Below are positions 21,651 to 45,416 of a stretch of DNA of 64,000 nucleotides, one piece after another. A model generated the notes under the pieces. It saw nothing but the letters and a program-made list of their open reading frames with translations. It was not told the DNA's origin and did not search any database. This stretch comes from an uncultured Acidobacteriota bacterium (lineage in GTDB: Bacteria > Acidobacteriota > Thermoanaerobaculia > Gp7-AA8), in contig CAWGHO010000003.1 in the NCBI GenBank assembly GCA_963822445.1, positions 1,312,001-1,376,000 of the forward strand, in the 5' to 3' direction. Position numbers and translations under genes: made by a program. Each line of letters begins with the position of its first letter. Positions within the stretch are counted from its first letter, which is position 1.

Positions 21651-21836
21651 GGCCGACGTCTGTCGCCTAAGCTGCGGCGAGCCCCACGCGCGTGCGGGCA
21701 GAGCGGCACGCCGGTCGCCGCGATTGACGTCGACCGATCTGCGAGCGGCGTGCCGCCGCGCATCTTGAAAGAATCGAGGGGCTTCAGCCCCGGGCGCGGT
21801 AAACGGGTCGCTGACGGTTGCTGGCAGGACTTGGGC
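21651..21836 (+). mobile_element. attC-like element (degenerate copy)
   Basis: ggccgacgtctgtcgcctaagctgcggcg...ggggcttcagcccc...ttgctggcaggacttgggc; homologous to the other copies but with decayed core sites. Confidence 0.7.
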
Positions 21837-21907
21837 GGCTTTGTCACGGTCTACCCGGACTTGATGTTTCGGGTAGGGATAAATCGTCCGGCGTCACTCC
21901 TATCGAT

Positions 21908-22939
21908 GTGAGCGATGACATCGATCGAAGCTCCATCGCCGAGCAGATCCGCGATGTGCTTCAGAACAACTACAAAGACGTGCGCCACGTTGAGCTTGAG
22001 ACCGCCGCGGCAATCGCGAACCGCGTCATGGGTTGGGCGAAAGTCTTCGGCTTCTTTGCCGGTATTCCACTCGTGCTAATCGCAGTGTGGCTTGGCTGGA
22101 TCGGTTACAAGTCGATCAGCGATTTGGAAAAGCTCCAGGACCAGATTGCCGCGTTGCAGACCGACGTCATATCCAAACAGGCGCAGCTAGCAAAGCTAAA
22201 GGAGCTCGACTCGCTCGAACAGCGGCTAACAAGTCTTGCCACTCGAGTGAAATCGCTCGAAGTGAAATTCAGCGGCTCGGCGGACGTCGGAACCGACGCA
22301 AGGCGCCGTATCGAAGACGTCCTCACTCGATATCAGGCTCATTTCGCCTCCCTCGGGGTCCGTTTCGCCGCGAATCAGGAAACGAACATCCGCATTGAGA
22401 AGTCAGACGTGATGGCCGAGAAGAATTCACTCGCGTATTACGATCCGGAGAAAAATGAGATGGTCGTCAGTGAAGACTATATCGCTAACGACGACGTCGT
22501 GCTCCGCGAGTATACGCACCTCGTTCTCGCGCTCGCAAATCCAGACGCAAAAGCAATGGGCACGCCGAATCTCTATGCACTCGAATCTGGTCTCGCTGAC
22601 TACTTTTCGCGAAGCTTCGCTGGCTCTCCCGCATACGAATCGCTCCCTGAACGCACTCTCGCGAACGACTTGAAAATTCGATCTGCGCGCGACTTCGCTG
22701 ACGCGCACACCGTCGGATTGGCTTGGGGTGCATTCGCGTGGGACTTGCGAGAAAAACTGGGCACAGAAGCCACCGACAGGCTCCTCTTGGAGGTCTGGAA
22801 AACGCCCGGGTGGAGTCGCGCGTCCAATCTCGTCGAGAGCTTTGTAACCGCGCTCTTCAATGTTGATGACGTCTTCAACGAAGGCGCGAACGAGAAATTA
22901 CTCCGGACTCTGCTTGTGAAACACGGCGTCGTGGACTGA
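21908..22939 (+). CDS. Cassette-borne membrane-anchored coiled-coil protein with a degenerate M4/M36-like peptidase domain (start uncertain)
   Basis: TM, coiled coil, then AYYD...DDVVLREYTHLVL...ALESGLADYF (HEXXH appears as REYTH). Confidence 0.65.
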   Translation: MSDDIDRSSIAEQIRDVLQNNYKDVRHVELETAAAIANRVMGWAKVFGFFAGIPLVLIAVWLGWIGYKSISDLEKLQDQIAALQTDVISKQAQLAKLKELDSLEQRLTSLATRVKSLEVKFSGSADVGTDARRRIEDVLTRYQAHFASLGVRFAANQETNIRIEKSDVMAEKNSLAYYDPEKNEMVVSEDYIANDDVVLREYTHLVLALANPDAKAMGTPNLYALESGLADYFSRSFAGSPAYESLPERTLANDLKIRSARDFADAHTVGLAWGAFAWDLREKLGTEATDRLLLEVWKTPGWSRASNLVESFVTALFNVDDVFNEGANEKLLRTLLVKHGVVD

Positions 22940-22985
22940 TACGGCCGAGGGATGTCGAGTCGTGTACTCTGCTCGTCTCGGGTCC

Positions 22986-23180
22986 GCCCAACGTCTATCG
23001 CCTCAGCGGCGGCGAGGCCCCGCGTGCCTACCGGGAAGCGGCGCGCCGCTTGCCGCAACTAACGAGATGTCGGCGGGCGCGATCTGCAAGCGGCGTGACG
23101 CCGTGCATCTTGGGACGAAACAGGGGCTTCAGCCCCGGGTCAGCGAACGGCCCGCCGTCCGCTGCTGGCAGTAGTTAGGC
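22986..23180 (+). mobile_element. attC-like recombination site (195 bp)
   Basis: Inverse core GCCCAAC and core GTTAGGC; outer stem GCCTCAGCGGCGGCG/CGCCGTCCGCTGCTGGC with bulged bases; lies 46 bp after a gene stop. Confidence 0.85.
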
Positions 23181-23224
23181 GGCGCCTATACTTGAATCCG
23201 TTCGCGGAGGCGCGACGTTAAATC

Positions 23225-24034
23225 ATGACAGATTCTTCAGTTCTGGAGACGGTTGTGGATGCGGCTCGTCGCCCGGTGATTCCGCTGTTTGCCGCTCGTA
23301 GTCGCCGGCGTTTCGAACACGTCGGTTCCGCCGTTCTCGTCCGAACACGTGCACGTCGATTTGTGATCGTCACGGCCGGTCACGTGCTCGATAACGTAAT
23401 TCCAGATCCGCTTCTGACATGGGGCACGTCCGAGTCGGGTGCGATCCGCCTGCGGTACCGCGACGCGCTAACTAGTGAACCACGCTCGTTCAGACGCCGT
23501 GCCGATCGTGTCGACCTGGCAGCCTTCATCCTCGATGATCGTACAGCCGACAGGCTTAGTTCCATCGGTGCCGTTTTCGTGTCGGAACTCTTGTTCACCG
23601 ACCGTATCAACACTGAGGCGATCTACGCATTCGTAGGATACCCGCGCTCAGTGAACAAGGTTGACCGCGTTAAAACGGCCGGTGGACGCCTCCGGCAAAT
23701 GCTTCCAAATACCGCCGCGTTCATGCCGGCGCAGGCATCCGAACAAAGGGCGTACGAACTTGTGAACGCGATCGCAAGTGTGAACTTCGTTGCGCGGTTT
23801 GATCGTGATAACTCCCAGCGATACGACGACGCGCGAAGGCCTCTACCCGACCCCAACGGAATGAGCGGCGGAGCTGTGTATTGCTTCGGGAACTCCGTCG
23901 CCGATGATTGGTACGCACTCGATCATTTACAGCTTGTGGGTGTTGGCACGGAGTACCACCGACGCGAACGATTATTCGTCGCAGCGAACTCGCGTGCGGT
24001 TCAGCACTTGCTTCGCGCACTTGATCAAAGCTAA
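23225..24034 (+). CDS. Cassette-borne trypsin-like serine protease
   Basis: Catalytic triad motifs VTAGHV, VDLAAF and GMSGGAV. Confidence 0.75.
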   Translation: MTDSSVLETVVDAARRPVIPLFAARSRRRFEHVGSAVLVRTRARRFVIVTAGHVLDNVIPDPLLTWGTSESGAIRLRYRDALTSEPRSFRRRADRVDLAAFILDDRTADRLSSIGAVFVSELLFTDRINTEAIYAFVGYPRSVNKVDRVKTAGGRLRQMLPNTAAFMPAQASEQRAYELVNAIASVNFVARFDRDNSQRYDDARRPLPDPNGMSGGAVYCFGNSVADDWYALDHLQLVGVGTEYHRRERLFVAANSRAVQHLLRALDQS

Positions 24035-24144
24035 CGATCCGATCGCACGCGAACCGCAGCAGGAAATGACCTTGAGCGGCCTCCATGTTGGTCCATTCGC
24101 GGAGCTTCATGGAAGCGTGCGAAAACACAACTTTTGATTCGTCC

Positions 24145-24343
24145 GCCTAACGTCTGTCGCCTAAGCTGCGGCGGGTGCGCGAGTGCAACCGGCTGAGCGG
24201 CGCGGCCGTTGCCGCGACTAACGCCTTTTCAGGCAGGAGCGATCTGCAACGGCCGTGACGCCGCGCAGATTGGAGTCGGCCGAGTCGGCTCGGCCGACGG
24301 GCCACGGAGACAGCCCGCCGACAGCTTCTGGCAGTAGTTAGGC
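24145..24343 (+). mobile_element. attC-like recombination site (199 bp)
   Basis: Perfectly complementary GCCTAAC...GTTAGGC; stem GCCTAAGCTGCGGCGGG/CCCGCCGACAGCTTCTGGC. Confidence 0.85.
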
Positions 24344-24379
24344 GGCTCCATTCATACTAAACAGTGTCGTAAGCGATCC

Positions 24380-24895
24380 TTAACGCGAAATACTTTCCGG
24401 GAAACACTGAATGACGACCGCGAGCGCCACGTCCGCCACAGCCAGAACTACTGATAGCGCAACGTTCAAGCGAGCGGCGCGAAACGGGGCCGGCCATTGT
24501 GGACGAGGCGCAAGACGGAAGGGCTTGACCGTCGGATCGCCGTGATCGTCGCCGGTTCGGCGAAGTAATTCAGAAGGGACGCCTTGCCCGATGTACTTCT
24601 TCGAGAGCTCGTAACCAAGCCACGTGAGTAAGTGGCCGTTGGCATCTCGAATCTTCGCATCGCGGAGCATCATAAAGACGAGTGCGATCGTTAGAATCGC
24701 CGCGGCGACGAGTAACACCGCGGAGAGCCAGTCGGTTCGAAGAGAAAGTGCTCCACCGAGTGCACCGGCTTGAATCGCGAGTATTATTTGCACCCGACTC
24801 CACATGAGCGCGTCCTGATGACAAAAGTGCGCCATCAGAGTTGCGAACAGATTGGCGTCGGGCTCCGGTTTGTTTTCCGGTGATGCGTTGGTCAT
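24380..24895 (-). CDS. Hypothetical 3-TM membrane protein (cassette-like)
   Basis: 171 aa ORF with HQDALMWSRVQIILAIQAGAL and hydrophobic helices; lies between attC-like sites. Confidence 0.6.
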   Translation of the reverse strand: MTNASPENKPEPDANLFATLMAHFCHQDALMWSRVQIILAIQAGALGGALSLRTDWLSAVLLVAAAILTIALVFMMLRDAKIRDANGHLLTWLGYELSKKYIGQGVPSELLRRTGDDHGDPTVKPFRLAPRPQWPAPFRAARLNVALSVVLAVADVALAVVIQCFPESISR

Positions 24896-25122
24896 CGATC
24901 CTCGCAGACGGCAACGACGGTTCCATGAATTCTAGCGAACGTTGCGGCCAATCGAATGGGCGATTACCTATTTTGACACAATTGCGCATTTCGGTTGTTT
25001 GGAGCTGGTCTGCCGGAGCGATTGCGCTGCCTTGCCTGGTAGGATAGGACGATTGGCTCGAACAAGCGTCTGTCACGCGCTCGGACGAACGTCGGGCCAC
25101 CTCTGGATTCTCGCTCCAGTCC

Positions 25123-25140
25123 GCCTAACTCCTGATTAGC
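25123..25140. mobile_element. Isolated integron-type core site (GCCTAAC; minus strand TAATCAGGAGTTAGGC), possible array end or attI-like remnant
   Basis: Same gtccGCCTAAC context as the 24145 copy but without the attC stem; lies ~70 bp from the 3' end of the VWA gene. Confidence 0.4.
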
Positions 25141-25210
25141 CAGCGTAGCCGGCCCCCGGCGTCCACTCGGGTTGGAGGCAAGGTAGCAGCCGACGGTTAG
25201 CGAACGCGTC

Positions 25211-27529
25211 TCACCACGGCGCGTAATACCCAGCCGGTGCTCGTACCTCGCGACCCCGCCCGGCCACATCGACGTCGATCGTCCGCCAGTCGTTCTCACT
25301 CCTGCCTGGATCGGTGCGAATCACGACCAGGGATTGCGCACGCAGGGCGGCGGCGATCTTCTCGTATACCTCGGGGAGCTCTGTGAGGTTGCGGAGGGAA
25401 TGGGTGTTGCCGCCGGTCGAGCGGATCACGTTTACGAAACCGGCGAAGTTGATCGACCAGGAATCGCCGGCGACGGACTGCACCGTGAAACCGTCGCGGG
25501 AATTGGGGCCGGCCGCGCGCGTGGGCGCGTTGGCGAAGGGGCGGGCGGTGGGTGGGGCGGCGATCAGGTAAATGGGGATGTTGCTGCGCCTGGCCAGGTC
25601 CTCGACGTGTTTCGTCTCGTAGCGGCTGACCCGGTCGTCGCCGTCGCTGAAGACGATCATGGCTCGCCGGCCTTTGATTCCTTCGAATTGCAGGAGGCCG
25701 AGGATCATGGCGTCGTAGAGAGCGGTATCGCCTTGTGTGCGCAGCGCCATGATCTTGTTGCGCAATAAGGCGCGATCGGAGGTTGGTGTCTGAATTAAGC
25801 GCGCTGTAGTGTCGAACGTAATCAGAAAGGCGCGGTCATTGGGGCCGAGGGCTGTATCGAGAAAGCGGATGGCGGCTTCCTGCACGTCGAGCAGGTTCTT
25901 GTACATGCTCCCGGACGTGTCGAAGACGAGGCCCACCGTCAATGGGGCGTCGCTCCCGCTGATGACTGACTCAATGGCGCGTTTCATCCGGCCTTCGCGG
26001 ACCGTCACATCCTTCGTCGTAAGGCGGACAGGGGCGCCGTCATCCGTGATCGTGACCGGAAGCTCGACGAGCAGCACATTGGACTGCTCGACGTAACCCG
26101 TCGTGTTGAGCAGCACCGCGTCTTCCGTGGTGCGGCCATCATCGAGCTCCGCGACCGCTTTCAGGATTCCGAGCTCCGTCGGGATGCGAACATCCGCTTG
26201 CCAGGGCTCTCTGGTGATCACCGCGCGTTCGGCGTCATTCCAGGAAACGACCACGCGTTTCACATTACGGCCGGCCGGCGCGCGCATGGTCGTGGTCACG
26301 CGCACATTGCCGCTGGCCTTGCCCGCTCGCGGCTCGATCAGCCGGAGCCAGAACATGTCGCCGGCATGGTTGACGGTCAGCTCATGCCGCCCGATCTCTT
26401 TCCCCTTCACGTTGAATGCGACGGCACGAATGGTTTTCGCCTGCGGGATGCGCCCGAAATCGACGCTCGTCGAAAACGGCGGCCGATCGACAGCCGCTTT
26501 CTGATCGCCGTCGACGGTGAACACGACCCGCGCGACGTGGGTCGACGAAACGGAGGTCAGGATGCGCTGCGGTCCGGTGACGATCTGTTCCTGCGGCGGA
26601 ATGATCCGGATCGGCGTCGACTGCGGAGCTGCGGCCGCCGGCTGGAGCGACGCCAGGGCCTCGCTGGCGCTGGCGCGCGTGCCGCTGCCGCGCGGCGCGA
26701 GCTCGATCGCTTTCCTGTACGCCTGCGTCGCTTCATCGGTTGCACCTGCACTGCGATGAATGGTCGCGATTCCCATCCACGCCGTCGCAGCCGCCTCGGT
26801 ATTGCTCGCGTTGGCGGCCAGCGTCTGCAGGGACTGCAAGGCCTCGCTTCGCTTCGGCCCGTTCGAGTCGAGCATGGCCAGCGCCACGATCGCCATCTCC
26901 CGCGTGGACGCACTTCCGTGCAAGCTGGCGCGCTCGATGGCGGCGCGACCTTCGTCGCCGCGTCCGAGGATGTACAGGGCGGTTGCCAGTTCGAGCTCGC
27001 CTTCATGCGGACCTTTGGTTTCCGCGAGCGCGGCTGCGTTCTCGAGATTCGGTTTGGCCGACACGATGCCGTCGAGCATCGCCGCGAAGACGGTGTTGTC
27101 GGCCGGAAGTCCTCCGAGCCTGGCTACGGGTTTCCCGCGACGATCGTGCAGAACCAGGTCGCTGATCTGCATTTCCGGCGGCCCGAAGAGCGGCCGCGTC
27201 ACGAACACGATCTCGGCCAGACGCCGCTGAACGCCGGGGTGTTTCAGCAGTTTGTCTTCGAAGTCGGCGCAGCGGCGTTGCGCCTTGCACTTGGCCGGTT
27301 TCTCGAAGAGCAGGATCGGCTTCTTCTCGCGTCCGGCGCGCTCCAGCGCCTCGCGCCACGAAGCATCGGTCGCGGGATCGACGGCCGGAGGCTCGGCTTC
27401 GACCTCGTCATCGCTCTCGTCATGGATCTCGATCTCGCCCATCGAGACCGCCGGCTTCGGCGCGGGCTGCTGTGCGGGAAGAGGAACGGCGAATATCGAA
27501 ACGAGAACAGCGACTGACCAGAGTCGCAC
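25211..27529 (-). CDS. Secreted TPR + Ig-like + VWA domain protein (acidobacterial VWFA-related)
   Basis: Signal peptide; MIDAS VFDTSGSM; TALYDA; AMIVFSDGDD; WRTIDV...VRAPAGYYA. Confidence 0.88.
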   Translation of the reverse strand: MRLWSVAVLVSIFAVPLPAQQPAPKPAVSMGEIEIHDESDDEVEAEPPAVDPATDASWREALERAGREKKPILLFEKPAKCKAQRRCADFEDKLLKHPGVQRRLAEIVFVTRPLFGPPEMQISDLVLHDRRGKPVARLGGLPADNTVFAAMLDGIVSAKPNLENAAALAETKGPHEGELELATALYILGRGDEGRAAIERASLHGSASTREMAIVALAMLDSNGPKRSEALQSLQTLAANASNTEAAATAWMGIATIHRSAGATDEATQAYRKAIELAPRGSGTRASASEALASLQPAAAAPQSTPIRIIPPQEQIVTGPQRILTSVSSTHVARVVFTVDGDQKAAVDRPPFSTSVDFGRIPQAKTIRAVAFNVKGKEIGRHELTVNHAGDMFWLRLIEPRAGKASGNVRVTTTMRAPAGRNVKRVVVSWNDAERAVITREPWQADVRIPTELGILKAVAELDDGRTTEDAVLLNTTGYVEQSNVLLVELPVTITDDGAPVRLTTKDVTVREGRMKRAIESVISGSDAPLTVGLVFDTSGSMYKNLLDVQEAAIRFLDTALGPNDRAFLITFDTTARLIQTPTSDRALLRNKIMALRTQGDTALYDAMILGLLQFEGIKGRRAMIVFSDGDDRVSRYETKHVEDLARRSNIPIYLIAAPPTARPFANAPTRAAGPNSRDGFTVQSVAGDSWSINFAGFVNVIRSTGGNTHSLRNLTELPEVYEKIAAALRAQSLVVIRTDPGRSENDWRTIDVDVAGRGREVRAPAGYYAPW

Positions 27530-27534
27530 TGTGT

Positions 27535-29469
27535 TTAGCCCTCCGCGGCTGCCTTCTTCGCTTTCTTCGCCATTACCTCACGCTGGGAGTGGTCCAGAAC
27601 AGTCTTGCGGATGCGAATTGACTCAGGCGTAACTTCCACCAGCTCGTCATCTTCGATCCACTCCAGGCACTGCTCGAGCGTCAGCTGCTTCGGCGGGGTG
27701 AGCCGCACGGCCATGTCCGATCCCGAGGCGCGCATGTTGGTGAGGTGCTTGGCGCGGCAGACCTGGACGACCATGTCGCTGTCGCGCGAGTTCTCCCCGA
27801 CGACCTGCCCGCCGTAAACCTTGACGCCCGGTCCGAGGAAGAAGGTGGTGCGCTCCTGCAGCGGCTCGATTGCGTAGGCGGTGGTGTCCCCGGTCTCCTT
27901 GGCCACGAGCGCGCCGCGATTGCGCGAGGCCAGCTCGCCGCGATACGGACCGTATTCGAGGAAGGTGTGAAACAGCAGGCCCGTGCCGCGCGTCTCGGTC
28001 AGGAACTCGGTGCGGATGCCGAAGAGGCCGCGCGTCGGAATCTTGAACTCGATGCGCACGCGACCGGTGCCGGGATTGACCATGTCCGTCATCTCGCCGC
28101 GGCGCTCCTGGATCTTCTCCATGATCGCGCCGGTGTGCGCTTCTTCGATGTCGACGACCAGGGCCTCGTACGGCTCCATGGTCTGGCCGCCGATGTTCTT
28201 GAGGATGACCTGCGGCCGCGACAGCGCGAACTCGTAGCCCTCGCGGCGCATGTTCTCGGCGAGGATCGACAGGTGGAGCTCGCCCCGTCCCGACACTTCG
28301 AAGCGATCGGCCTGACCGGTCTCTTTGACGCGCAGCGCGACGTCTTTGCGCAGCTCGCGCTCGAGGCGGTCTTTGATGTTGCGGGAGGTGACGTACTTGC
28401 CTTCCGTGCCGGCGAACGGGGAGTCGTTGACCATCCAGAACATGGACACGGTCGGCTCGTCGATGGCGATCGGCTCGAGGCGTTCCGGCGCATCGATGGC
28501 GGAGAAGGTCTCGCCGATCTCCACGTCGGTGAATCCGGCGATGGCCACGATCTCTCCAGCTGCCGCTTCCTCGACCTCGGTCCGCTTGAGACCTTCGAAG
28601 ACCGTCAGCTTGGTGACGCGGCCTTTCTTGTGCGTGCCGTCGCGGCGGATGAGGACGACGTCGGAGGCCTGGCGGATCGTGCCACGCTGGATGCGGCCTA
28701 CGCCGAGGCGGCCGACGTATTCGTTGTAGTCGACGGAGCTGACCAGGAGCTGCAGCGCGCCCTCGGCATTGCCGGGCGGGGGCGGGATGCGCTTGAGCAC
28801 GGCATCGAACAGCGGCCGGCAGTCTTCGGTAGTGTCGGCGAGCTCGGTTCGGACGATGCCCTTGCGGCCGATGGCGTAGAGGATGGGGAAGTCGAGCTGT
28901 TCGTCGGACGCGCCGAGCTCGATCATCAGATCGAACACTTCGTTCACGACCTCGGTCGGCCGCGCGTCGGAGCGATCGATCTTGTTGATGACGACGATCG
29001 GCAGGAGGCCGAGGATGAGCGCTTTCCGCAGGACGAACCGCGTCTGCGGCATCGGCCCCTCGGCGGCATCGACGAGGAGGATGACCCCTTCGACCATCGA
29101 CAGCACACGCTCCACTTCGCCGCCGAAGTCGGCATGGCCGGGGGTGTCGACGATGTTGATCTTCACTTCGCTGGGGTGGACGAACTCCGCGGGAAGGTCG
29201 TGTCCGCTGGCCGTGTGGGTGGCCTCGTGATGGACCGGGTGGCCGAGGGCGTCTGGCTGGTCGACGAGGTAGCGGACGGAAGTGTTCTTGGCGAGGATGG
29301 TGATCCCGCGCTCCTTCTCGAGGTCGTTCGAGTCCATGACGCGCTCATCCATGTGCTGGTTCGCACGGACGGCGCCGGACTGCTTGAGAAGCGCGTCGAC
29401 GAGCGTGGTTTTCCCGTGGTCGACGTGCGCGATGATGGCTACGTTTCTGATGTCGTGTCTAAACTGCAT
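27535..29469 (-). CDS. typA: Translational GTPase TypA/BipA
   Basis: [78 protein letters not shown]. Confidence 0.98.
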
Positions 29470-29569
29470 GCCCGACCCTTAACGCTCTGAGTCTTCAGAC
29501 ATTCCGGTCGCACTTGCCGAAAACGGAATGTCGTGCACAATAGGCGCGGTTCTCCATCCACACACCCAT

Positions 29570-30238: not shown

Positions 30239-30270
30239 TTGCGGGGTTTCGGGGTTACGAGGTTTCGGGG
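30238..30270. repeat. Octamer tandem repeat (GTTNCGGG)x4, intergenic
   Basis: gttgcggg gtttcggg gttacgag gtttcggg. Confidence 0.8.
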
Positions 30271-36200: not shown

Positions 36201-37687
36201 ACGGTGATGACTTCCTGCGCCGCTCCCCGTGCGTCCGTCATCACGCGCGTGGATGCGTGAAGCGTCCGGACGTCCCCGTCCGGCAACACGATCCTGCAGT
36301 CCGTCTCGACGGGGACCTTCAGGCTCAGAGCGTGGCGGGCGAGGGACGTCACCCGCTCGCGATCGGCCGGATGAAGCATCGAGCGCATCTCGGTGACGTT
36401 CAGGACGATGCCCGGCGGGAGGCCGAACATCCGCGACATCTCGTCCGACCAGGTTTGCGCGCCGGTCGCGAGCACGTACTGCCAGCTTCCAATCCCGGCC
36501 AGCCGCTGCGCCTCCGCGAGCTGTTCCTTGTGTGCGCGCAGCTCGTGCTCGGCGCGTTTCGTGGTCGAGATGTCGTTGGACACGGTCACGACTCCGGTGA
36601 TCGCTCCCTGTTCGTCGTGGATCGGGGCGGCCACGACCCAGGCCGGGAAGTGGGAGCCGTCCCGGCGCTGCAGCATCAGCTCGCCGGTCCAGCTCTCGCC
36701 GGCCCGCAATCGATCGAGCGTCTCCGCAGCCAGCGGCTTCACGTAGGACGGCGCGGTCACCTCCAGGATGTTCCGGTCCCGCACCTCCGCCGCCTCCCAA
36801 CCGTACAGCTCCTCGGCATGGCGGTTCCAGTAGGTGATCCGGTCCTGCAGATCGGTGGCAACGACTGCCTGTTCGACCGAGTCGAGCAGGCGCGCCTGAA
36901 GAGCGAGCCGTTCGGTGGTCGCGTGCCGTTCGCTGACGTCGTCGACCAGCACGATGATCTCCTCGAGACTCTCGTCGGTGCCGATCATCGGCGTGATGGT
37001 GAGGTGGACGCGGACCGTACGGCCGGCACTGTGAAGGAATCGCGTCTCGCCCTCCGTCGGCAAGCGCGCGGAGAACCGCGCCTCGGCCTCGGCGGCGTCG
37101 TCAGGATGAAGGAGAGTGGTGAAGCGGCGCCCGATCAGCTCCCGCTTCGTGTAACCCACGACCGACGCGAAATGCTCGTTCACGCTGGTGAGGCGGCCGG
37201 AGGCGCTGACGTTTGCGATCCCGATCGGAGCCTGCTCGAAGGTGCGCCGGTAACGCTCCCTGTTCTGGCGCAGCTCGGCGAAGAGGTGAGTGCGCTCGTC
37301 GCGCGTCGCCGCGTCGCGAAGTTCCCGGCGCACGGTTCCCGCGAGGCGGGGGAGCTGGTCCTTCCTCACGTAATCGTTCGCGCCGGTACGGATCGCTTCC
37401 GCGGCGTGCTCTTCGCCGTCGCCGGAGAGCATCACGAAGGGAAGATTCGGGGAGAACTCGCGGACGAGCTTCAACGCGTCGAAGCCGGACCAGCCAGTGA
37501 GCTTCTCCTCGGCGATGACGATGCTCCAGGACGCCTTCTCGAGCGCCTGGGCGACGGAGTGGCTGTCGAAAGCGGTCCGCCAGCTGGCCTCGATCCCGTC
37601 CCGCCGGAGCTGGCCGATGACAGCTTCGCCGTCCCGCTCCCGGCCGATGTACAGCAAGCGCACCATGAGTTTGTCGTCCAACGTCAT
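33281..37687 (-). CDS. Hybrid sensor histidine kinase (REC-PASx3-GAFx2-PASx2-HisKA-HATPase-REC)
   Basis: AHEFNN H-box; NLILNARDAM; DTGEGM; GTGLGL; C-terminal REC VLLVEDE...VLDVGLP. Confidence 0.93.
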   Translation of the reverse strand: MTLDDKLMVRLLYIGRERDGEAVIGQLRRDGIEASWRTAFDSHSVAQALEKASWSIVIAEEKLTGWSGFDALKLVREFSPNLPFVMLSGDGEEHAAEAIRTGANDYVRKDQLPRLAGTVRRELRDAATRDERTHLFAELRQNRERYRRTFEQAPIGIANVSASGRLTSVNEHFASVVGYTKRELIGRRFTTLLHPDDAAEAEARFSARLPTEGETRFLHSAGRTVRVHLTITPMIGTDESLEEIIVLVDDVSERHATTERLALQARLLDSVEQAVVATDLQDRITYWNRHAEELYGWEAAEVRDRNILEVTAPSYVKPLAAETLDRLRAGESWTGELMLQRRDGSHFPAWVVAAPIHDEQGAITGVVTVSNDISTTKRAEHELRAHKEQLAEAQRLAGIGSWQYVLATGAQTWSDEMSRMFGLPPGIVLNVTEMRSMLHPADRERVTSLARHALSLKVPVETDCRIVLPDGDVRTLHASTRVMTDARGAAQEVITVAQDVTDARRAEEGIRRYAIQQSAIANLSHLALSGAGMTELFHEAAAFAGEVLKVDACEVTKASGDRLVMVAGVGWEPGTVNDARPAGPLSLATYTLRERTAIISRDIATDDRFRPADLLLRHGLHGGATVPIGAGGEAWGFIGAYSHAQRVLEHSEIEFLSTIATILGQSIERAGADVELRVRAMQESAIAELGALAFTSVDQKTLDRACELVRIGLRVEHALLHARTNGKLVVRAGEVWHPDLKAITVVGDDSQTGKTAMTRQPVVVTDYFQDGRFSREVKASAAAAGVRSGMSVPLVGSKTFFGVLSAYGSMARAFTQADVHFMQSLANALAEAMERERTTRALVASEERYRSVVEGASEIIFDVDSDGVICAINRAFDTFTGRSGEPLIGRPFGDLFHGDDQQQARELFAELKRDRKTLTWEATALRADGTPLLLDLTLVPKVVNGEVVSMHGFARDVTERRRIERERQQLTASLQLLLESTAEGIVAVDDEGRCQLINGSAARMLGSSVEELAGRKMHALCHSKYADGSARPLAECPIMEVLHNGATLVVAEDTFWRMDDTPFPVEYSASPLIDDGRTLGVVVTFSDITERRKLERKLEQANRLSSLGRLAATVAHEFNNVLMGIAPFVEVIRRTTARDRIDSSLGQITQSIARGKRITSEILRFTQPAEPSRARVDVSEWLRAVTAEAHSLLPAGITLDVVSDEGLAIDGDVTQLHQMLTNLILNARDAMPSGGMLTIRALREAPDAKFAFGVVERPERFIHLMVRDTGEGMSAETRRHIFDLLFTTKKTGTGLGLALAHQIVMRHGGEIFVESALGAGTTFHIFVPAAGEEMTSAADAKPQTEKRPHVRKRRVLLVEDEPSVAAGIASLLELEGLIVETAGSGAAAIEAVRAAPPDVIVLDVGLPDMEGPAVYDVIAEAHPELPVIFSTGHADASRLDQYLSKPTVSFLFKPYDAAALIAAIDDVS

Positions 37688-37752
37688 TCCGGGCAGCGGG
37701 ACTTATGGCAGTTAATTAGGCACCCGCCTATCGGAGCGTACGTACAAAGCGC

Positions 37753-37768
37753 GTAAGACACGTCTTAC
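37753..37768. promoter_or_regulatory. Perfect palindrome GTAAGAC-AC-GTCTTAC, probable response-regulator binding site
   Basis: 7-2-7 inverted repeat between a NarL-type regulator and the kinase; the loop is too short for a terminator. Confidence 0.55.
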
Positions 37769-37778
37769 ACGCGGCGTT

Positions 37779-38417
37779 TCAAATCAGTTTGTTTCTGATT
37801 GCGTAACCCACGATGTCCGCGTTCGAACTGAAGCCGGCTTTCTCGAGAATCCGCGCGCGATACGTGCTCACCGTTTTCACGCTGAGGTTCAACATCCCCG
37901 CGATCTCGGTAGGGGACCTGCCGAGCGACAGGAGCCGGAAGACCTCGAACTCGCGCGCTGACAATCGCTCGTGCGGCTGCTTCACGCCGTCTTTTTCGAG
38001 GCTTCGTGCAACCTCCTCGGCCACGGCCGGCGTCACATACCGCCGCCCGCCGGCCACCCCGGCAATCGCGCTGAGAATCTCCGCCGGCTCCGTGTTGCGT
38101 CGCAGAAACGCGTTCGCACCCGCGCGGAGAAAAGGGATCGCGTACTGCGATTCCGGATAGGTCGAGAGGACGATCAGCGACACGGCAGGGAACTCCGCAC
38201 GAATGCGAGTGACGACGTCGAGACCGCTGCTCGAGCCGAGCGGCACGTCGAGGACGACCACGTCGAACGGCTCGTTGCGAAGACAGCCGGCCAGCTCATC
38301 GGCGCTGGCCGCTTCCCCCGCTACGGCCCATTCCGGGCGTGCCCGGACGATCTCGCGCAGACCCTTGCGAACGATCGGATCATCCCCGGCAACCAGCAAC
38401 CTCACTGAAGTCATCAT
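37779..38417 (-). CDS. NarL/LuxR family response regulator
   Basis: REC domain + HTH LSAREFEVFRLL...LSVKTVSTYRARILEK. Confidence 0.92.
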   Translation of the reverse strand: MMTSVRLLVAGDDPIVRKGLREIVRARPEWAVAGEAASADELAGCLRNEPFDVVVLDVPLGSSSGLDVVTRIRAEFPAVSLIVLSTYPESQYAIPFLRAGANAFLRRNTEPAEILSAIAGVAGGRRYVTPAVAEEVARSLEKDGVKQPHERLSAREFEVFRLLSLGRSPTEIAGMLNLSVKTVSTYRARILEKAGFSSNADIVGYAIRNKLI

Positions 38418-38485
38418 CGCGGCGCCACGTCGGCAGACACATAATTCCGCAGAACCATCGTTATGCGGTGTAAAGAAATCGTGGG

Positions 38486-39616
38486 TCATGCCGCCGCCGC
38501 GCTCCAGTGCGAAGCCTCGCGAGGGATGCTGAAGTAGTAGCCCTGGGCCAGCTCGATGCCCAGCTCTCCTGCCGCGGCGGCCGTGGCCTCGGTCTCAATG
38601 CCCTCGAGGACCGTCGTGCAACCGAAGTCCCGGGCCAGGGACAGGACGTTGCGCACCACCCGCCGTTTGTCATGGTCCGACTCGAAGTCCGTTCCGAAGA
38701 CATTGCTGATCTTGAAGAAGGATGGACGCGTCATCGAGATCGTGCCGATGTGCGAGTACGCCGAAGCGTGATCGTCGAGGGCGAAGCGCACTCCGGCCTC
38801 GCGCAGCGCGCTGAACGTGCCCGCGCATACCGGATCCCCGGAAAGGGAGCTGCGCTCGGTGATCTCCAGAACGATCCTGCTCAGCGGGATGCCCGAACGC
38901 GCGGCCGTTGCCACGACTTCACCGGCCAGCAAAGGGTCACTGAAGGTCGGCGGATCGACGTTGATGAACACGAGCGATTCCCGCGGCAGCGCCGCGGCCG
39001 AGCGGATTGCCGAAACGATCGCCGCACGGTTGAGTGTGACCGCTCGCCCGGACCGCACCGCGTATTCGAAGAGCGCCTGGACGCCGCCGAGCGGCCATCC
39101 TCCGCGCAGGCGGGTCAGGGCCTCGAACGCATAGGGTGCTCCACGTTCACCACCCGTTCGAACGATCGGCTGAAACGCCGTCTCGATCCGCGCCTCCGCC
39201 AGGACCTCATCGATGTCAGGAACGCGAACGACCCTGTACGGCGAGTCCTCCAGCGCGGCACGGCCGATGATGGCTTCGAGCTCCGACGTGTCGAACGGCT
39301 TGCTGAGGATCGCAGTCACGCCGTAACCCGAAACGGCTCCGCGTAGGGCGTCGGAGAGGAACCCGGTCATGAGAACGATGCGCGCGCCCGGCACGCGCGT
39401 CCGGATCCGATCGACGAAATGAAGTCCCTCGAAGCCGAACAGCCCCGAAAACTGCACGTCGGAGACGATGTCGGTGACGGGGAAGGTCTTGAGCGCGAGC
39501 TCGGCCGCGTGCACGTCGGGGCAGATCACAACCGTCCGCCCCGGGCGCTCGAGCGCGACGGCCATGGCCTCGGTGATGAGGCGCTCGTCGTCGATCAGAA
39601 GGATGGTCTGGCGCAT
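38486..39616 (-). CDS. REC-EAL c-di-GMP phosphodiesterase-like response regulator
   Basis: ILLIDDE REC; FQPIV, EALTR, LEITE, ALDD, EGIET and QGYYF motifs. Confidence 0.9.
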   Translation of the reverse strand: MRQTILLIDDERLITEAMAVALERPGRTVVICPDVHAAELALKTFPVTDIVSDVQFSGLFGFEGLHFVDRIRTRVPGARIVLMTGFLSDALRGAVSGYGVTAILSKPFDTSELEAIIGRAALEDSPYRVVRVPDIDEVLAEARIETAFQPIVRTGGERGAPYAFEALTRLRGGWPLGGVQALFEYAVRSGRAVTLNRAAIVSAIRSAAALPRESLVFINVDPPTFSDPLLAGEVVATAARSGIPLSRIVLEITERSSLSGDPVCAGTFSALREAGVRFALDDHASAYSHIGTISMTRPSFFKISNVFGTDFESDHDKRRVVRNVLSLARDFGCTTVLEGIETEATAAAAGELGIELAQGYYFSIPREASHWSAAAA

Positions 39617-39624
39617 GGGCTTCC

Positions 39625-39984
39625 TTACGCGATCCGCGCGAGCTCCCGGGTGTTTGCGGCCAGGCCGTGGGTCTTCAGGTAGAAATCGACGTCGCCTGCA
39701 GCGAGCGCATACAGCACCCGATCTCCGCCGCGACCGACCGAGCTCAGAAACGCCGCGCCGTCCTGCTGGACCAGCATCACGTCGCCGGCAATCTCGTGCG
39801 GCAGGGAGGCGAGAAACTGCAGATACTCGTCGGCCGAGGCGCAGCGGTCGATGATGACGCGCTCCACGTCATGCACAGCGGCGGCCTCCCTCAGTCGCGC
39901 GAGAGAGCCGACGTAGAGCGTCCCCGGATGCTTCCAGGAATGCTTCGCGTCATTCGAAACGATCAGAGTCAGGCGCTTGGTCAT
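39625..39984 (-). CDS. Hypothetical 119 aa protein (possibly degenerate receiver fold)
   Basis: Co-oriented operon ORF with typical codon use; VERVIIDR...DVMLV beta/alpha pattern. Confidence 0.65.
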   Translation of the reverse strand: MTKRLTLIVSNDAKHSWKHPGTLYVGSLARLREAAAVHDVERVIIDRCASADEYLQFLASLPHEIAGDVMLVQQDGAAFLSSVGRGGDRVLYALAAGDVDFYLKTHGLAANTRELARIA

Positions 39985-39999
39985 GGCGGCCGCTTTCTC

Positions 40000-40131
40000 T
40001 CAGTGCAGATGCTTGAGCGTGAACGTGAGGACCGTGATCGCGAGCGCCGGGGCGCAGAGCGCGACGAACACGCGCCAGCTTTCGCGGCCGTGGCGGAGGT
40101 CGGTGAGGGTCTCGGTCATGAATCGGCTCAT
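40000..40131 (-). CDS. 43 aa single-TM microprotein (below ORF-track cutoff)
   Basis: AGGAG RBS; ATGA overlap with the upstream stop; MSRFMTETLTDLRHGRESWRVFVALCAPALAITVLTFTLKHLH*. Confidence 0.65.
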   Translation of the reverse strand: MSRFMTETLTDLRHGRESWRVFVALCAPALAITVLTFTLKHLH

Positions 40132-40472
40132 TTCAGGTCTCCTTCTTGATTGGCGGGGGATGGAAGAGGAACTTCACGGAATCCGAACTGGTCGCGCGGC
40201 CATACTTCGAGCGGCAACGAACGGCCATTGATGGTGTAGCTGGTGCGGCGGCGCGAGGCGATCAGCTCGATCGAGCCCTCGGCCGGCACGGTGTAGGTGT
40301 CTCCCGCATACCGGAACTCCTGTCCGGGCCTGCCCATGAAGCGGTAGCCGACCGTGGAGATGTTGCAGGTGACGGCCGGTTCCTGGACGGTCCTGGCCCG
40401 CTTGAAGAGAGCGCCGAGGTCGATCTCGACGTTGATCGAGGCGGTGAGGATGAGGGCTGCTGCGAGGGTCAT
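40128..40472 (-). CDS. Small hypothetical exported protein (114 aa)
   Basis: GGAG RBS; hydrophobic N-terminus; beta-rich body GYRFMGRPGQEFRYAGDTY. Confidence 0.7.
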   Translation of the reverse strand: MTLAAALILTASINVEIDLGALFKRARTVQEPAVTCNISTVGYRFMGRPGQEFRYAGDTYTVPAEGSIELIASRRRTSYTINGRSLPLEVWPRDQFGFREVPLPSPANQEGDLK

Positions 40473-40503
40473 TTGATCTGGGTCTCCGTTGCGCTTCCAC
40501 TAG

Positions 40504-40519
40504 TCCAAGACTGGCACCA
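40504..40519 (-). promoter_or_regulatory. Candidate sigma54 -24/-12 promoter
   Basis: TGGTGC-CAGTC-TTGGA on the minus strand (consensus TGGCAC-N5-TTGCW; the -12 C is replaced); divergent from a sigma54 activator. Confidence 0.4.
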
Positions 40520-40620
40520 CGACCCGAAAAGCGGCCAAACTCAAGACAGGAAGCGACTTATCTACAGACACATCCGTGGCGCTTGTGTTTGACATCAATA
40601 CAAGTGTCTAATTTCCGGTC

Positions 40621-41970
<1,350 letters not shown>

Positions 41971-42009
41971 GGCAGAGCCGCCGCACTCCAACGGCCACAG
42001 CGTCGCCAG

Positions 42010-42336
42010 TCACTTTCCAGGCATCAGGAGTCTGACGCCTGAGTCGACGACCGCCCGAAGTACTTTCATGGCATTGGGGTGCGGATCTGCCGTCGGGTTG
42101 TCTCGCGTGTAAAGCACGCCCCCACCTCTGGCAGCGAGTCTTGTGAGCTCCTGCTTCAATTCTTCGAGCGTCACTTCACGTCCGTCGGCTGTTATGACGC
42201 CGCGCGAGGTTATGTGTACGGCGAGGATCTCCTCGGGAAACGTGGGGCGAGGCGGTTGATCAACCTGAGTACACGCAGCGAGGATGGCCGCGAACAGGAG
42301 GACGAGTGCAACTCGCGCAAACGGCGTGAATTTCAT
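42010..42336 (-). CDS. Small lipoprotein with an ExbD/TolR-like periplasmic domain
   Basis: Lipobox LAAC; VHITSRGVITADGREVTLEELKQEL...AMKVLRAV. Confidence 0.6.
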   Translation of the reverse strand: MKFTPFARVALVLLFAAILAACTQVDQPPRPTFPEEILAVHITSRGVITADGREVTLEELKQELTRLAARGGGVLYTRDNPTADPHPNAMKVLRAVVDSGVRLLMPGK

Positions 42337-42349
42337 AACGCGAGTATAG

Positions 42350-43170
42350 CTACGGTCGCGAGTCGCGAGCAGCTCCCACCAACTCCTCATAGCTGCCTTC
42401 GAAAAATGAGACATTGTGAAACGCTTCTCTTGCGATTGCCTCAGCCACATCTCGAGCCTGCTCTTGATCGCGTCCGAACACGACGACACGCGTATTGTGA
42501 TCGTTCATCGGCAGCCGGCCGTCGTCCTTGGCAGTCTTGATTTCGCCGACATCTTTGCCCGGCAGCACGAGAGACCGGGGAATGTTTCTGGCGCCGGCGA
42601 CCGAGCTCGCGGAGAACTCTGGCCGGTCACGCGCATCTATGAAGACGGCCGTTTCGGTCCTGAGCCAGGACGTAACGGATGCCCTCGGGCTCAATGACCA
42701 TGACCTTTCCCAACGCGCGCCAGACGGGAGCTCCGAGCTGATAACGTCGCATGTCCGAGTAGCCCGCGGCAAGTAGCTCGTCGCTGAGACGCTTGCTCTT
42801 TCCGCAGAAGGGGCCATTGCAGTACAGGATGAGCGGCTGGGCTTTGTTGCCGTTGACGAGCCGTTCGATCTCGGCGACATCCGACACATAAAGCGCTATT
42901 GAGGTATCGGGCTTCGGCGCCACGTTCAAGGCGCCCGGGATGCGGCTGATCGCCCACTCCAGGCGTCGTCGCGTGTCGAGCACGACGACACCACCGCTCC
43001 GAGCTGCGGCCTCCAATCTCTTCCGTCGAGATGTTGCGTGTTGCAACATCCGGTTCGGAAAGCGTTGCCGAAAAAATTGTCTGGGCCTGCTGCTCCCGAT
43101 GATCTCGTATGGCGCACGACACAAGCGCGGACAATGCCATCACAGTAACGAACGTCCGACGCGGCTGCAT
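42350..43170 (-). pseudogene. Tandem rhodanese-domain protein with two frameshifts (pseudogene or sequencing error)
   Basis: Three track ORFs join: NISTEE|LEAAARSGGVVVLDTR...IPGALN...LYCNGPFCGKSKR...|AVFIDARD...GARNIP. Confidence 0.75.
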
Positions 43171-43242
43171 GATGACCATTCGACTGCTGTCAGTCTGCGA
43201 GCGCAGGAATCGCACGCGCGTGGGTTTCTCCGCGCGACGCCG

Positions 43243-44076
43243 CTAATCTGTTCGCACAAGCAGCGCCAGGCTCGTCACGTTTGACCCCAGTTTTGTAGGC
43301 CAAGGTAATCGCCCGAGCGGTAGAACGACGAATGAACTACCCTCCGCCTCGAGCCGTTGTGTCGCCAGAAATGGGCCGGGAATGACCACATTGTTGGACC
43401 ACAATGGTTTCGCTCCGGGGAAGAAGTCGTGAAGCAGGATTACACCATTCGGATTGAGCAATCTCAATGCAGCCGGTATCTCGCGGTAGACCACGTCCGC
43501 GGCATGATTGCCGTCAAGGAAGATGAAATCAAATTTCCTTTTACAGCTCCTCATATAATCCAAGGAACTGGCTGTAACAAACTCAGCGACGTCTGTGCAA
43601 CCCATGCGACCGATCATGTCGGCCGGCGAATTCGCGGTGCCGTGTTGCAACCAGGGCCTCGACACCGGCTCATTTACATCGACAACGTCTACGGAGATCA
43701 GGCAGGCGCCGTCTTCTGCCACGGTATTCCGGCAACTAGTGATGGCGGCGGCGATGTGCACGGTCGACGCACCGATGTGGGTGCCGATTTCCAGGACGGA
43801 ACGGGCCTGGAGATAGCTGACGAGATAAAAGATCGCCCTCCTGTCTCCTGGATTCACGCCCCCGGTCCCGTCCGGTATTTCAAACGCACGAAGCGCCGGC
43901 ATCACCTCCATCCATGCCGTATCGATCTCTCCGGAAGTGAAGATCTCGTCTAACCTGACGCGATCAGCGGCACATAACAATGCCGCGTTGCAGTCGAGGA
44001 CGGACACACGTTTGAGCCGCCTTGTCTCCTGACGTAGCTTCCAGACGTTTCTAAAAGATTCGAACACTCGATTCAC
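43243..44076 (-). CDS. Class I SAM-dependent methyltransferase (Methyltransf_24-like)
   Basis: VLEIGTHIGAST, FDFIFLDGNH and LNPNGVILLHD motifs; lower GC than flanks. Confidence 0.88.
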   Translation of the reverse strand: MNRVFESFRNVWKLRQETRRLKRVSVLDCNAALLCAADRVRLDEIFTSGEIDTAWMEVMPALRAFEIPDGTGGVNPGDRRAIFYLVSYLQARSVLEIGTHIGASTVHIAAAITSCRNTVAEDGACLISVDVVDVNEPVSRPWLQHGTANSPADMIGRMGCTDVAEFVTASSLDYMRSCKRKFDFIFLDGNHAADVVYREIPAALRLLNPNGVILLHDFFPGAKPLWSNNVVIPGPFLATQRLEAEGSSFVVLPLGRLPWPTKLGSNVTSLALLVRTD

Positions 44077-44218
44077 GCCTCACCGAAGTGGGGCATGGTA
44101 TACGAAGCGCCTTGGTCGACTGTCGCTTTCGCTTTGTCTCTCGCAACCATGTTTTGCGCGCAGGAATGTGGAAGCGACCGAGGCGATGACTTTGCGAGGG
44201 TTCTCTGTTCAACGTGTC

Positions 44219-44411
44219 GGCTAACGTCTATCGCCTCAGCGGCGGCGAGGCCCCGGAAGCATGCGGCAAAGCGGCGCGGCGCTTGCCGAAACTAACGAGA
44301 TGTCGGCGGGCGCGATCTGCAAGCGGCGTGACGCCGTGCATTCCACGACACGGCAGGCAGCTCGGCTGCCGGACCGAAGCCGGGCGCACCAGCTACAACG
44401 TGAAGTTAGGC
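44219..44411 (+). mobile_element. attC-like element (193 bp; divergent right arm)
   Basis: GGCTAACGTCTATCGCCTCAGCGGCGGCGAGG...GAAGTTAGGC; left two-thirds nearly identical to the 22986 copy. Confidence 0.8.
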
Positions 44412-44680
44412 CGACGTGATTACAGCGCTTCGAGTAACGGACGATCTCGCTTAGCCGCGCCTCTTCGTACGGCGGCGACGCCGCACCACGTCAGGCGTCG
44501 CGATTTGGTCCGGTTCCGCTTCGAAGCTCGTGCAATTTAGACATGCCTACTCGGTAGTACTCACGCTGCGAGCCCGACTGTTCGTGCGTCACCTCGGTGT
44601 TGCTGGCTCTGTCAGCTGGATGAGTCGGGACATGCGACTCACGCAACGCTGAATCAGGTTCGAGGTAGAATCCGGAGATC

Positions 44681-44902
44681 ATGCGAGTAGCCTCTGGTCG
44701 CGTAATCGATGGGCGAGTTGAGCTGATGGGCACGGAACTTCCTGAGGGTGCAGCTGTTACCGTCCTCCTCAGCGAAGGTGACGAAACGTTTGAGGCAGAT
44801 CCCGAAACCGAACGGATGCTTCTCGCGTCGATCGCGCAGTGCGAGCGCGGACAGACCGTACCGTTCGAAACGGTGCTTGAGGAGCTTCGGCGGCGCGGGT
44901 GA
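44681..44902 (+). CDS. Putative antitoxin
   Basis: 73 aa acidic protein (LLASIAQCERGQTVPFETVLEELR) overlapping the toxin gene by GTGA; TAGAAT -10 just upstream. Confidence 0.75.
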   Translation: MRVASGRVIDGRVELMGTELPEGAAVTVLLSEGDETFEADPETERMLLASIAQCERGQTVPFETVLEELRRRG

Positions 44903-45213
44903 ACGGGCCGTTACACATCGAAGTCAGCGAGCTTGCTGACCGACAGATTCAAGAAGCGGATGTCTGGTGGCGCGAGAACCGTCGAAAGGCACCGAACGCC
45001 ATTCGTGAGGAACTCGAGCGTATCGGTTCGCTCATAGCGTTTCAGCCTCACTTGGGTGCGCGTGCTACGAACGTCAGTCTGCGCGGTGTACGTCGCATTC
45101 ACATCGAACGGATTCACTACGATCTGTATTACAGAACAGTTGGTTCGCCTCCCGAATACGTGGAGATCGTAGCGTTCTGGGGATCGCGCCGTGGGAGTGA
45201 CCCTCCCATCTAG
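44899..45213 (+). CDS. RelE/ParE family toxin
   Basis: IEVSELADRQIQEADVWW...QPHLG...GVRRIHIERIHYDLYYR...VEIVAFW. Confidence 0.82.
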   Translation: MNGPLHIEVSELADRQIQEADVWWRENRRKAPNAIREELERIGSLIAFQPHLGARATNVSLRGVRRIHIERIHYDLYYRTVGSPPEYVEIVAFWGSRRGSDPPI

Positions 45214-45218
45214 CCGCG

Positions 45219-45416
45219 GGCTAACTACTGCCAGCAGCGGACGGCGGGCCGTTCGCCGCGCCCGGCGGCCGAGCCGCCTACTACATCCCGAGACGCACGA
45301 CGTCACGCCGCTTGCAGATCGCGCCCGCCGACATGTTCGTTAGTTGCGGCAAGCGGCGCGCCGCTCTGCCGCTCGCGCGTGGGGCCTCGCCGCCGCTGAG
45401 GCGATAGACGTTAGGC
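45219..45416 (-). mobile_element. attC-like element in inverted orientation (198 bp)
   Basis: Reverse complement reads GCCTAACGTCTATCGCCTCAGCGGCGGCGAGG...CCGTCCGCTGCTGGCAGTAGTTAGCC. Confidence 0.85.

Follow-up and report, generated by a model that had tools for sequence, protein, structure and literature searches.

The subject of this work is a family of elements of about 195 bp, of which five full-length copies and one remnant lie in a 64-kb stretch of DNA from an uncultured Acidobacteriota bacterium (G000:C3:1312001-1376000, on contig C3; hereafter the window). It is very probable that the elements are attC recombination sites and belong to a sedentary chromosomal integron specific to the genus. 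The system is of a known kind, a chromosomal integron accompanied by clusters of attC sites lacking an integron integrase (CALINs), and the unusual part is the long, conserved and branched middle of the sites. The original prediction had taken the copies for a candidate undescribed system dispersed through the genome. This did not hold up: what is, as judged from its sequence, a canonical integron integrase (IntI) is encoded beside an array of 86-87 sites, CALINs are a published category (as presented in PMC4889954), and branching is described for the Vibrio cholerae repeat (VCR) sites in PMC2727003. A false lead is thereby removed, the supposed undescribed dispersed system being a standard integron with satellite cassette clusters.

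The site family, its integrase and its array

A covariance model, R1, was trained on 99 copies from the genome (6.0 Mb, GC content 64.5%) and scanned over the entire window with filters off. It recovered exactly the copies of the original prediction, five full-length and one remnant, and a repeat search of the window yielded the same copies as direct (D14, D15, D17) and inverted (I2-I7) families. The other 30 of the 36 listed R1 matches in the window have E values of at least 0.0019; six of these (E 0.0019-0.28) lie on the opposite strand within the five full copies, where they cover the part of R1 that corresponds to hairpin A, one of two inner hairpins described below.

The intact copies are located at 45219-45416, 24145-24343 and 22986-23180. 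The first (198 bp, top strand on plus) scores 197 bits against R1, tied best in the genome, and is 89.9% identical to an array site. The second (199 bp, minus strand, 186.9 bits, 92% identity to an array site) belongs to another subfamily with the inner stem CGGCCGTTGC/GCAACGGCCG and closes the cassette on its right. The third (195 bp, minus strand, 185.4 bits, 90.4% identity to an array site) reads GCCCAAC ... GTTAGGC on the plus strand, which is its bottom strand, and its crossover would fall between 22992 and 22991. Copy 21651-21836 (minus strand, the plus strand being the bottom strand; 136 bits, 87.7% identity to an array site) has the degraded core boxes GGCCGAC and CTTGGGC, and closes the cassette that runs from 22991 to 21830 when read on the minus strand. 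Copy 44219-44411 (minus strand, 129.1 bits) is chimeric or degraded, with a best identity to any other site of only 77.7%. Alignments assign its 5' two thirds to the CAGCGG subfamily, while the last ~40 nt are a different, foreign 3' arm ending in GTTAGGC, an end that doubles as the G|TT start of a toxin-antitoxin cassette on the plus strand. The remnant at 17636-17770 (minus strand, 24.2 bits, E 2.6e-4) is degenerate, with the R''-L'' arm and the small hairpin B retained; the gene immediately downstream of it on the same strand carries TIR and GH25 domains.

An nhmmer search with a profile of the five window copies gave 124 matches in the genome, 99 of them near full length. Eighty-six of the 99 are arranged head to tail in one array, C2:2120545-2226604, and 13 are found elsewhere, including the five in the window; the copies outside the array are dispersed over about eight chromosomal places. 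Pairwise identity among the 99 sites has a median of only 63% (range 45-99%), and in the alignment they sort into a few subfamilies. The nearest relative of four of the five window copies is an array site (88-92% identity), compared with 71-85% identity among the window copies themselves. The window sites are thus closer to array sites than to one another, which fits cassettes drawn from a common pool and not local duplication.

The original prediction described the family as dispersed without an integrase. The lack of an integrase is true of the window and of contig C3, where a profile search of the genome gave no IntI match at E <= 0.001, but not of the genome as a whole, in which intI is located at C2:2118113-2119048, adjoining the array. 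Its product matches TIGR02249 (NCBIfam) with 456.4 bits against a curated cut-off of 265, over profile positions 2-313 of 315, and is the sole one of nine tyrosine-recombinase matches in the genome to exceed that cut-off. Residues 15-319 align with residues 13-318 of VchIntIA from Vibrio cholerae (2A3V, E 2e-93), and the alignment spans the IntI-specific additional segment with a single one-residue gap there. A candidate attI core, GTTAGGC, is found 348 nt past the intI stop, so that intI, the candidate core and then the cassettes follow each other on one strand. This layout, with intI reading towards the array, is what we take to be the "inverted integrase" arrangement of Treponema and several environmental phyla. 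The array holds 86-87 full sites of the family and about 90 cassettes in 106 kb, on the same strand as intI. Sedentary chromosomal integrons are those with more than 19 sites, and the large chromosomal array found here, its related attC sites and its common occurrence within the genus agree with such an integron.

The way in which site bodies and flanks are combined in the array is informative. Flank linkage was assessed for 84 array sites, giving 3486 pairs in total. The bodies are at least 90% identical in 96.6% of the pairs with similar left flanks (n=58), whereas this is the case in only 7% of those with similar right flanks (n=28), and the median body identity of the right-flank pairs (0.741) compares with a background of 0.739 for all pairs. 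Linkage to the left flank and not to the right indicates that each body belongs to the DNA on its left (C2 plus strand). Furthermore, 21 pairs share a downstream cassette behind different bodies; in 11 of them the identity, followed leftward, stops 4 nt short of the G of GTT, while in six it extends to -12 and in four to -20 to -31. Across 82 cassettes, the outer six bases of R'' match the TTRRRY of their own cassette start (5.49/6) better than that of their own site (4.78/6). Linkage, junction breaks and R'' complementarity are, as far as sequence patterns can tell, what cassette exchange at G|TT classically leaves behind. Together with the core boxes, the one-flank linkage and the G|TT exchange bear out the earlier assignment of the elements to attC.

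The longest open reading frame (ORF) runs with the array direction in 55 of the 86 array intervals and against it in 26, the other five having none of at least 60 aa. Among coding-like array ORFs, defined by a GC2 dip (n=73), 57 are oriented with the array and 16 against it. Of 18 R1 matches in other taxa, 17 are found downstream of intI and share the relative strand seen here. Because of flank linkage, the junction test, these ORF directions and the strand relative to intI in other taxa, top and bottom have to be exchanged with respect to the original prediction, which had read the plus strand as cassette sense: four of the five copies have their bottom strand, the recombining one, on the plus strand of the window. 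We rejected the plus strand of copies 21651 to 44219 as top strand; intI would then converge on its own array, and most array ORFs would be antisense.

The ends of the sites read GSCYAAC ... GTTRGSC, fitting R'' (RYYYAAC) and R' (GTTRRRY), and the integron-type ends of the original prediction (GSCTAAC / GTTAGSC) are visible in the copies. The AAC and GTT columns are invariant or more than 90% conserved in the alignment of 99 sites, window copy 21651 being degraded. In the bottom-strand consensus the R box GSCTAAC is paired with GTTAGSC, an unpaired spacer of three bases (GTC) is present on the R' arm only, and the 7-bp L box occurs in three covarying versions (TATCGCC, ATCTCAC and TTGGTGT). 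Inward of the L box follow one extra R''-L'' base, a 6-bp stem (NAGCTG), a second unmatched R''-L'' base and a stem of 5-8 bp. The unmatched bases occupy alignment columns 213/214 and 206, which lie about 15-16 and 23 nt inward of the R'' end, and extrahelical bases are described as carried on the R''-L'' arm of attC in PMC2727003. The inner ~140 nt form a three-way-junction terminal structure, in which linkers join two hairpins, A (about 19 bp, 4-nt bulge, loop of some 25 nt) and B (4-6 bp).

When the sequences were folded one by one as DNA, R-box pairing was obtained in 43-74 of the 99 sites and L-box pairing in 62-89. The fold of 22986-23180 (-54.8/-55.3 kcal/mol) contains the outer stem and the inner hairpins, and that of 24145-24343 has -68.8/-66.4 kcal/mol; the bottom strand is more stable than the top strand by only 1.8 kcal/mol (median). 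The motif ACTAAC, which the original prediction reported as persisting inside the elements, is indeed present in four window copies but varies genome-wide (alignment columns 93-100). It was considered as a second core site and rejected, since it differs between subfamilies. The plan of the sites is canonical and their branching has precedent, the size being the outlier.

Fold and possible roles of the inner part

Compensatory changes are evident in the window copies themselves. As the original prediction had reported, the outer stem changes from CAGCGG/CCGCTG to AAGCTG/CAGCTT and the inner stem from CGCCGCTTGC/GCAAGCGGCG to CGGCCGTTGC/GCAACGGCCG, and the small hairpin exists in four versions, all visible in the copies. 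Covariation was assessed in two sets, the 99 sites of the genome itself and 60 sites contributed by 12 further genomes of the genus, the latter in an alignment fitted to the model, which favours structure. Partners slid by 1-3 columns, a control that keeps relatedness, and 500 shuffles served for comparison. Standard pairs occupy 89.8% of the cells in the own genome and 89.9% in the other genomes, compared with 30-51% and 24-44%, respectively, when partners are slid. Changes on both sides are seen in 27 of 49 pairs in the own genome and in 35 of 49 in the others, compared with 9-14 and 14-19 after sliding, and none of the 500 shuffles reaches the observed values in either set. Hairpin A is paired in 95.7% of the cells in the own genome (8 of 15 pairs compensatory) and in 94-98% in the other genomes; the corresponding values for hairpin B are 99.2% (2 of 4 pairs compensatory) and 98.7%. 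The covarying branched inner structure of the original prediction stands.

By analogy with the attC family, the bottom strand would fold into a hairpin with paired R boxes, the 3-nt spacer, the 7-bp L box, the two unmatched R''-L'' bases and a stem of ~14 bp. IntI would bind this folded strand and cut it at AA|C (G|TT on the top strand), and cassettes would thereby be excised and inserted. The window copies form integrase-less clusters that, as already proposed in the original prediction, the distant integrase would have to serve in trans. The inner ~140 nt correspond to the variable terminal structure, enlarged here to a three-way junction.

A thermodynamic need for the inner hairpins is not supported. 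The probability of the outer, recombining stem was calculated for 31 sites (every third of the 99, those without standard pairs being dropped) with the native inner part and with mononucleotide shuffles of the terminal structure, eight per site. The medians were 0.357 and 0.359, respectively; the native value exceeded the shuffled one in 24 of the 31 sites, mostly by less than 0.01. Three readings of the inner hairpins were considered: kinetic folding together with exclusion of single-strand-binding protein, mechanical maintenance of palindromes, and a second function. We favour the first, in which the inner part would be a structural filling whose pairing is maintained by selection acting on the DNA in its single-stranded form. 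The benefit may lie in kinetic or compact folding, in reduced access of single-strand-binding protein and in fewer wrong pairings.

Several points weigh against attC sites with such a filling. Native and shuffled inner parts give equal stem probabilities, so that equilibrium folding offers no reason for the conservation of the inner part, and the sequence at the base of hairpin A is conserved between species, which fits recognition by a protein as well as plain structure. At the unmatched R''-L'' positions C/T and a variable base are found where classical sites have a conserved G and T, and in place of the classical spacer of 5/6 nt there is an unpaired 3-nt bulge on a single arm. Both ORFs between the three tandem window sites run opposite to the cassette direction, one pair of window sites is inverted and one site is chimeric. 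Recombination activity of the sites and of IntI is itself presumed from sequence patterns. Finally, the 84 array sites measure 186-201 bp and exceed the 57-141 bp quoted for attC in PMC5371416, so that the original prediction was right to call the elements long for attC sites; length is, however, descriptive and not defining for attC, because the terminal structure is variable by definition.

Selection on structure would be superfluous if the compensatory changes had arisen mechanically, by template switching or quasi-palindrome repair, by gene conversion or by copying of a few ancestral subfamilies, which we regard as unlikely. Correction of hairpins by intrastrand templating is an established mutational route. 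With only a few subfamilies the cell counts overstate the number of events, and related sequences can beat all shuffles without any structure. The slid-partner controls keep this relatedness, yet their pairing is 24-51%, against 90% for the true partners. In addition, some pairs occur in three standard types (e.g. UA 31, GC 13 and CG 10 in the 60-site set), and a tree of the columns that lie outside the hairpins implies 4-17 changes of state for each inner pair. These counts are rough, since the tree rests on only about 200 nt, and recombination between sites would inflate them.

Alternatively, the sites may be attC sites whose three-way junction has a second job, either as a platform for an accessory protein of the host or integron, or as an RNA element of cassette transcripts acting in processing, stability or translation. 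We consider this improbable. In its favour, hairpins A and B pair in 94-99% of the cells in the 12 other genomes, each showing several pair types; from species to species there is hardly any variation in the pairs at the foot of hairpin A or in the motif CGTGACGCC; hairpin A has a homologue within a separate structured cassette of ~355 nt that has no ORF and is confined to integron arrays (see below); and the equilibrium folding of the recombining stem is independent of the native inner structure. No protein partner, transcript or phenotype is known, and positions 16000-46000 of the window match no Rfam family at E <= 0.1. For 21600-24400 no RNA runs are listed, and three soil or rhizosphere DNA runs are listed at 5% of words each. 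Conservation of sequence alone is expected, since chromosomal integrons typically have highly similar attC sites throughout, and VCR sites are also branched without a second function being described for them in PMC2727003. Terminator-like matches at hairpin B are restricted to the GGGGCTTCAGCCCC subfamily, and such matches are not in excess of shuffled sequence, with six found against 3.2 +/- 1.6 expected. The corresponding strong version, that hairpin A and the junction would be a functional DNA or RNA module in every attC of the genus, read by a dedicated factor that controls folding, recombination or expression of cassettes, appears equally doubtful; if true, it would add a regulatory layer absent from the Vibrio and class 1 integron models.

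A transposon-type miniature element (a miniature inverted-repeat transposable element, MITE, or an element of the repetitive extragenic palindromic, REP, type) that merely resembles attC can practically be dismissed: dispersal over about eight places outside the array and inverted ends would suit it, but the target duplications that the original prediction named as its mark are absent, 72 of 84 array sites having no flanking direct repeat of at least 2 nt, 12 having one of 2 nt only and four of the five window copies having none, while 86 of the 99 near-full copies are arranged head to tail beside intI, the point of exchange is G|TT and only one flank is linked to the bodies.

Cassettes of the window and the array

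The window copies represent two CALINs, one at 21651-24343 with the additional remnant at 17636, and one at 44219-45416. Read on the minus strand, the first comprises a 171-aa ORF, attC 24145-24343, a reversed 269-aa ORF, attC 22986-23180, a reversed 373-aa ORF and the decayed attC 21651-21836. The 373-aa ORF (21818-22939, plus strand, against the cassette direction) is coding-like (GC1/2/3 0.62/0.40/0.65) and has sub-threshold Pfam matches only. The 269-aa ORF (23225-24034, likewise on plus and against the cassette direction; GC1/2/3 0.67/0.48/0.59) gave no Pfam match; by eye it displays a serine-protease-like H...D...GMSGG pattern, and PADLOC gave a weak match to LmuA (2.9e-6). The 171-aa ORF (24380-24895, minus strand; GC1/2/3 0.66/0.45/0.61) is co-oriented with the cassette closed by 24145-24343 and has neither a Pfam nor a PADLOC match; an upstream boundary of this cassette was not found.

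Beyond the first cluster, genes for a Kelch/Calx-beta protein, a DUF4272 protein and a peptidase M54 follow on the minus strand, then the remnant at 17636-17770 and then the gene encoding TIR and glycoside hydrolase 25 (GH25) domains. The latter (16426-17625, minus strand; Pfam TIR_2 3.2e-12, Glyco_hydro_25 4.9e-12) was given its start at 17625, an in-frame ATG chosen by eye. Its GC content is 0.59 compared with 0.645 for the genome, it has a weak PADLOC match to ThsB (5.5e-5), and it is probably an old cassette. The weak ThsB and LmuA matches of the TIR protein and the 269-aa protein are a hint of defence functions only. The minus-strand genes of lowered GC content between 16426 and 21482 (TIR and GH25, peptidase M54, DUF4272, Kelch and Calx-beta) may represent a decayed cassette stretch. 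A 108-nt direct repeat (92% identical) occurs at 16318-16425, just past the stop of the TIR and GH25 gene, and at 18328-18435, overlapping the 3' end of the peptidase M54 gene; these are its only two copies in the genome.

The second cluster is a complete ParE-type toxin-antitoxin cassette on the plus strand, with TTAGGCCGAC (44406) as its start and the G of R' (45410) as its end. It has its own intact attC, 45219-45416, and abuts the inverted chimeric attC 44219-44411. The toxin (44899-45213, plus strand, 104 aa) belongs to the ParE family (Pfam ParE_toxin, 26 bits, cut-off 23). The putative antitoxin (44681-44902, plus strand, 73 aa) has no Pfam match and is proposed on the basis of its position and a 4-nt overlap with the ParE start. 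The cassettes have a GC content of 56-58%, compared with 64.5% in the genome. No close copies of the window cassettes were found in the array, the only match being that of the ParE cassette, with 72% identity over 118 nt. Excised cassettes can integrate at non-classical genomic attG sites, as reported in PMC12614218, and such integration is one possible route to the window clusters.

Apart from these clusters, positions 1-14400 of the window are occupied by a very large repetitive region on the minus strand, which contains tandem-like units of ~620-660 nt and numerous families of short G+C-rich repeats (D1-D13, D18-D20) and resembles the gene of a giant, repeat-rich surface protein.

Within the array, the first cassette after the candidate attI core (L009:3405-4753, G000:C2) contains an ORF of the glyoxalase family, encoded on the opposite strand, together with a fragment that, by eye, resembles a GntR N-terminal domain. 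One array attC, at C2:2205444-2205659, is inverted relative to the other 93 hits and precedes an unusually long interval of 3.5 kb, which may reflect a local inversion or an insertion.

The ORF-less element of ~355 nt occurs in eight copies, all inside the array and in cassette sense. One lies at C2:2150185-2150533 (= L010:14685-15033), and the others start at 2157896, 2163913, 2168883, 2188676, 2199273, 2201814 and 2218087. Each copy is a short cassette of its own between G|TT junctions. Judged from ten sequences, including two from other genomes, the element folds as two domains with compensatory pairs, closed by a GCAGC/GCTGC stem: domain 1 contains a hairpin of 22 bp in which compensatory pairs are numerous, and the counterpart homologous to attC hairpin A lies in domain 2. 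As no R''/L'' partner was found for its 3' core box, the element cannot simply be an oversized attC. Full-length copies exist in three other genomes of the genus, and comparison with Rfam gave no family, only chance matches to miRNA hairpins.

Distribution and relation to known integrons

Of 24 other genomes from the same genus, 22 have the long form of the site, which was also detected, weakly, in one (G030) of 16 genomes of 14 other genera. IntI above the cut-off was detected in 23 of the 41 genomes searched, G000 included. These tallies include the unpublished genomes G002 and G030; the alignments use neither's sequence. The closest named IntI, 71% identical, is from a Thermoanaerobaculia metagenome-assembled genome (MAG). 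R1 matches end to end in eight of 80 intI loci of other taxa, where the sites measure 58-134 nt. Short sites near related IntI in MAGs of Acidobacteriota, Gemmatimonadota and Eisenbacteria have the same outer arms in the same orientation to intI but are without most or all of the inner part that bears hairpins A and B. That these short sites match the outer arms of the model indicates that the arms are those of ordinary attC sites and that the large inner part is a genus-specific elaboration. Ghaly et al. (2021, PMC8352920) showed that the sequence and structure of chromosomal attC sites are specific to lineages, and a covariance model for Acidobacteria is among those given there for 11 taxa.

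At about 200 bp the family records an extreme of attC architecture. The default upper attC limit of IntegronFinder is 200 bp, and with sites at this limit surveys may undercount cassettes in soil Acidobacteriota. In the literature searched for attC size and for Acidobacteria integrons, we found no description of attC sites longer than 141 bp. The function of the variable terminal structure has so far been studied mainly on the VCR sites of Vibrio, and a covarying terminal structure conserved throughout a genus offers a natural test case for it.

CALINs, defined as attC clusters without an integron integrase, were described as unexpectedly abundant by Cury et al. (2016, PMC4889954), and a 4-kb spacing rule for them is quoted in PMC8352920. 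The window clusters resemble CALINs in consisting of three and two nearby sites with no intI on the contig. They differ from plain CALINs in that the genome also carries a complete integron whose sites are of the same family, the two sites of one cluster are inverted around a ParE cassette, and two of the sites are decayed.

The closest likeness among known sites is to the VCR sites of the Vibrio chromosomal integron. In both, a long lineage-specific attC is repeated through a big chromosomal array, with an R/L-box stem, unmatched bases on the R''-L'' arm and a large branched terminal structure. The unmatched bases lie at comparable distances, about 15-16 and 23 nt from the R'' end here and at G16, T20 and T24 in VCR as given in PMC2727003, but here they are not G and T, and the spacer is a one-sided 3-nt bulge. 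The branched terminal structure of VCR2/1 is 65 nt according to the same source, whereas that of the present sites is ~140 nt with two defined covarying hairpins. The total length of 186-201 bp contrasts with the 120-129 bp quoted in PMC5371416 for most chromosomal integron sites, a set dominated by Vibrio. Furthermore, the sites differ from VCR in a median pairwise identity of only 63% (45-99%), and intI faces towards the array, not away from it as in the Vibrio integron.

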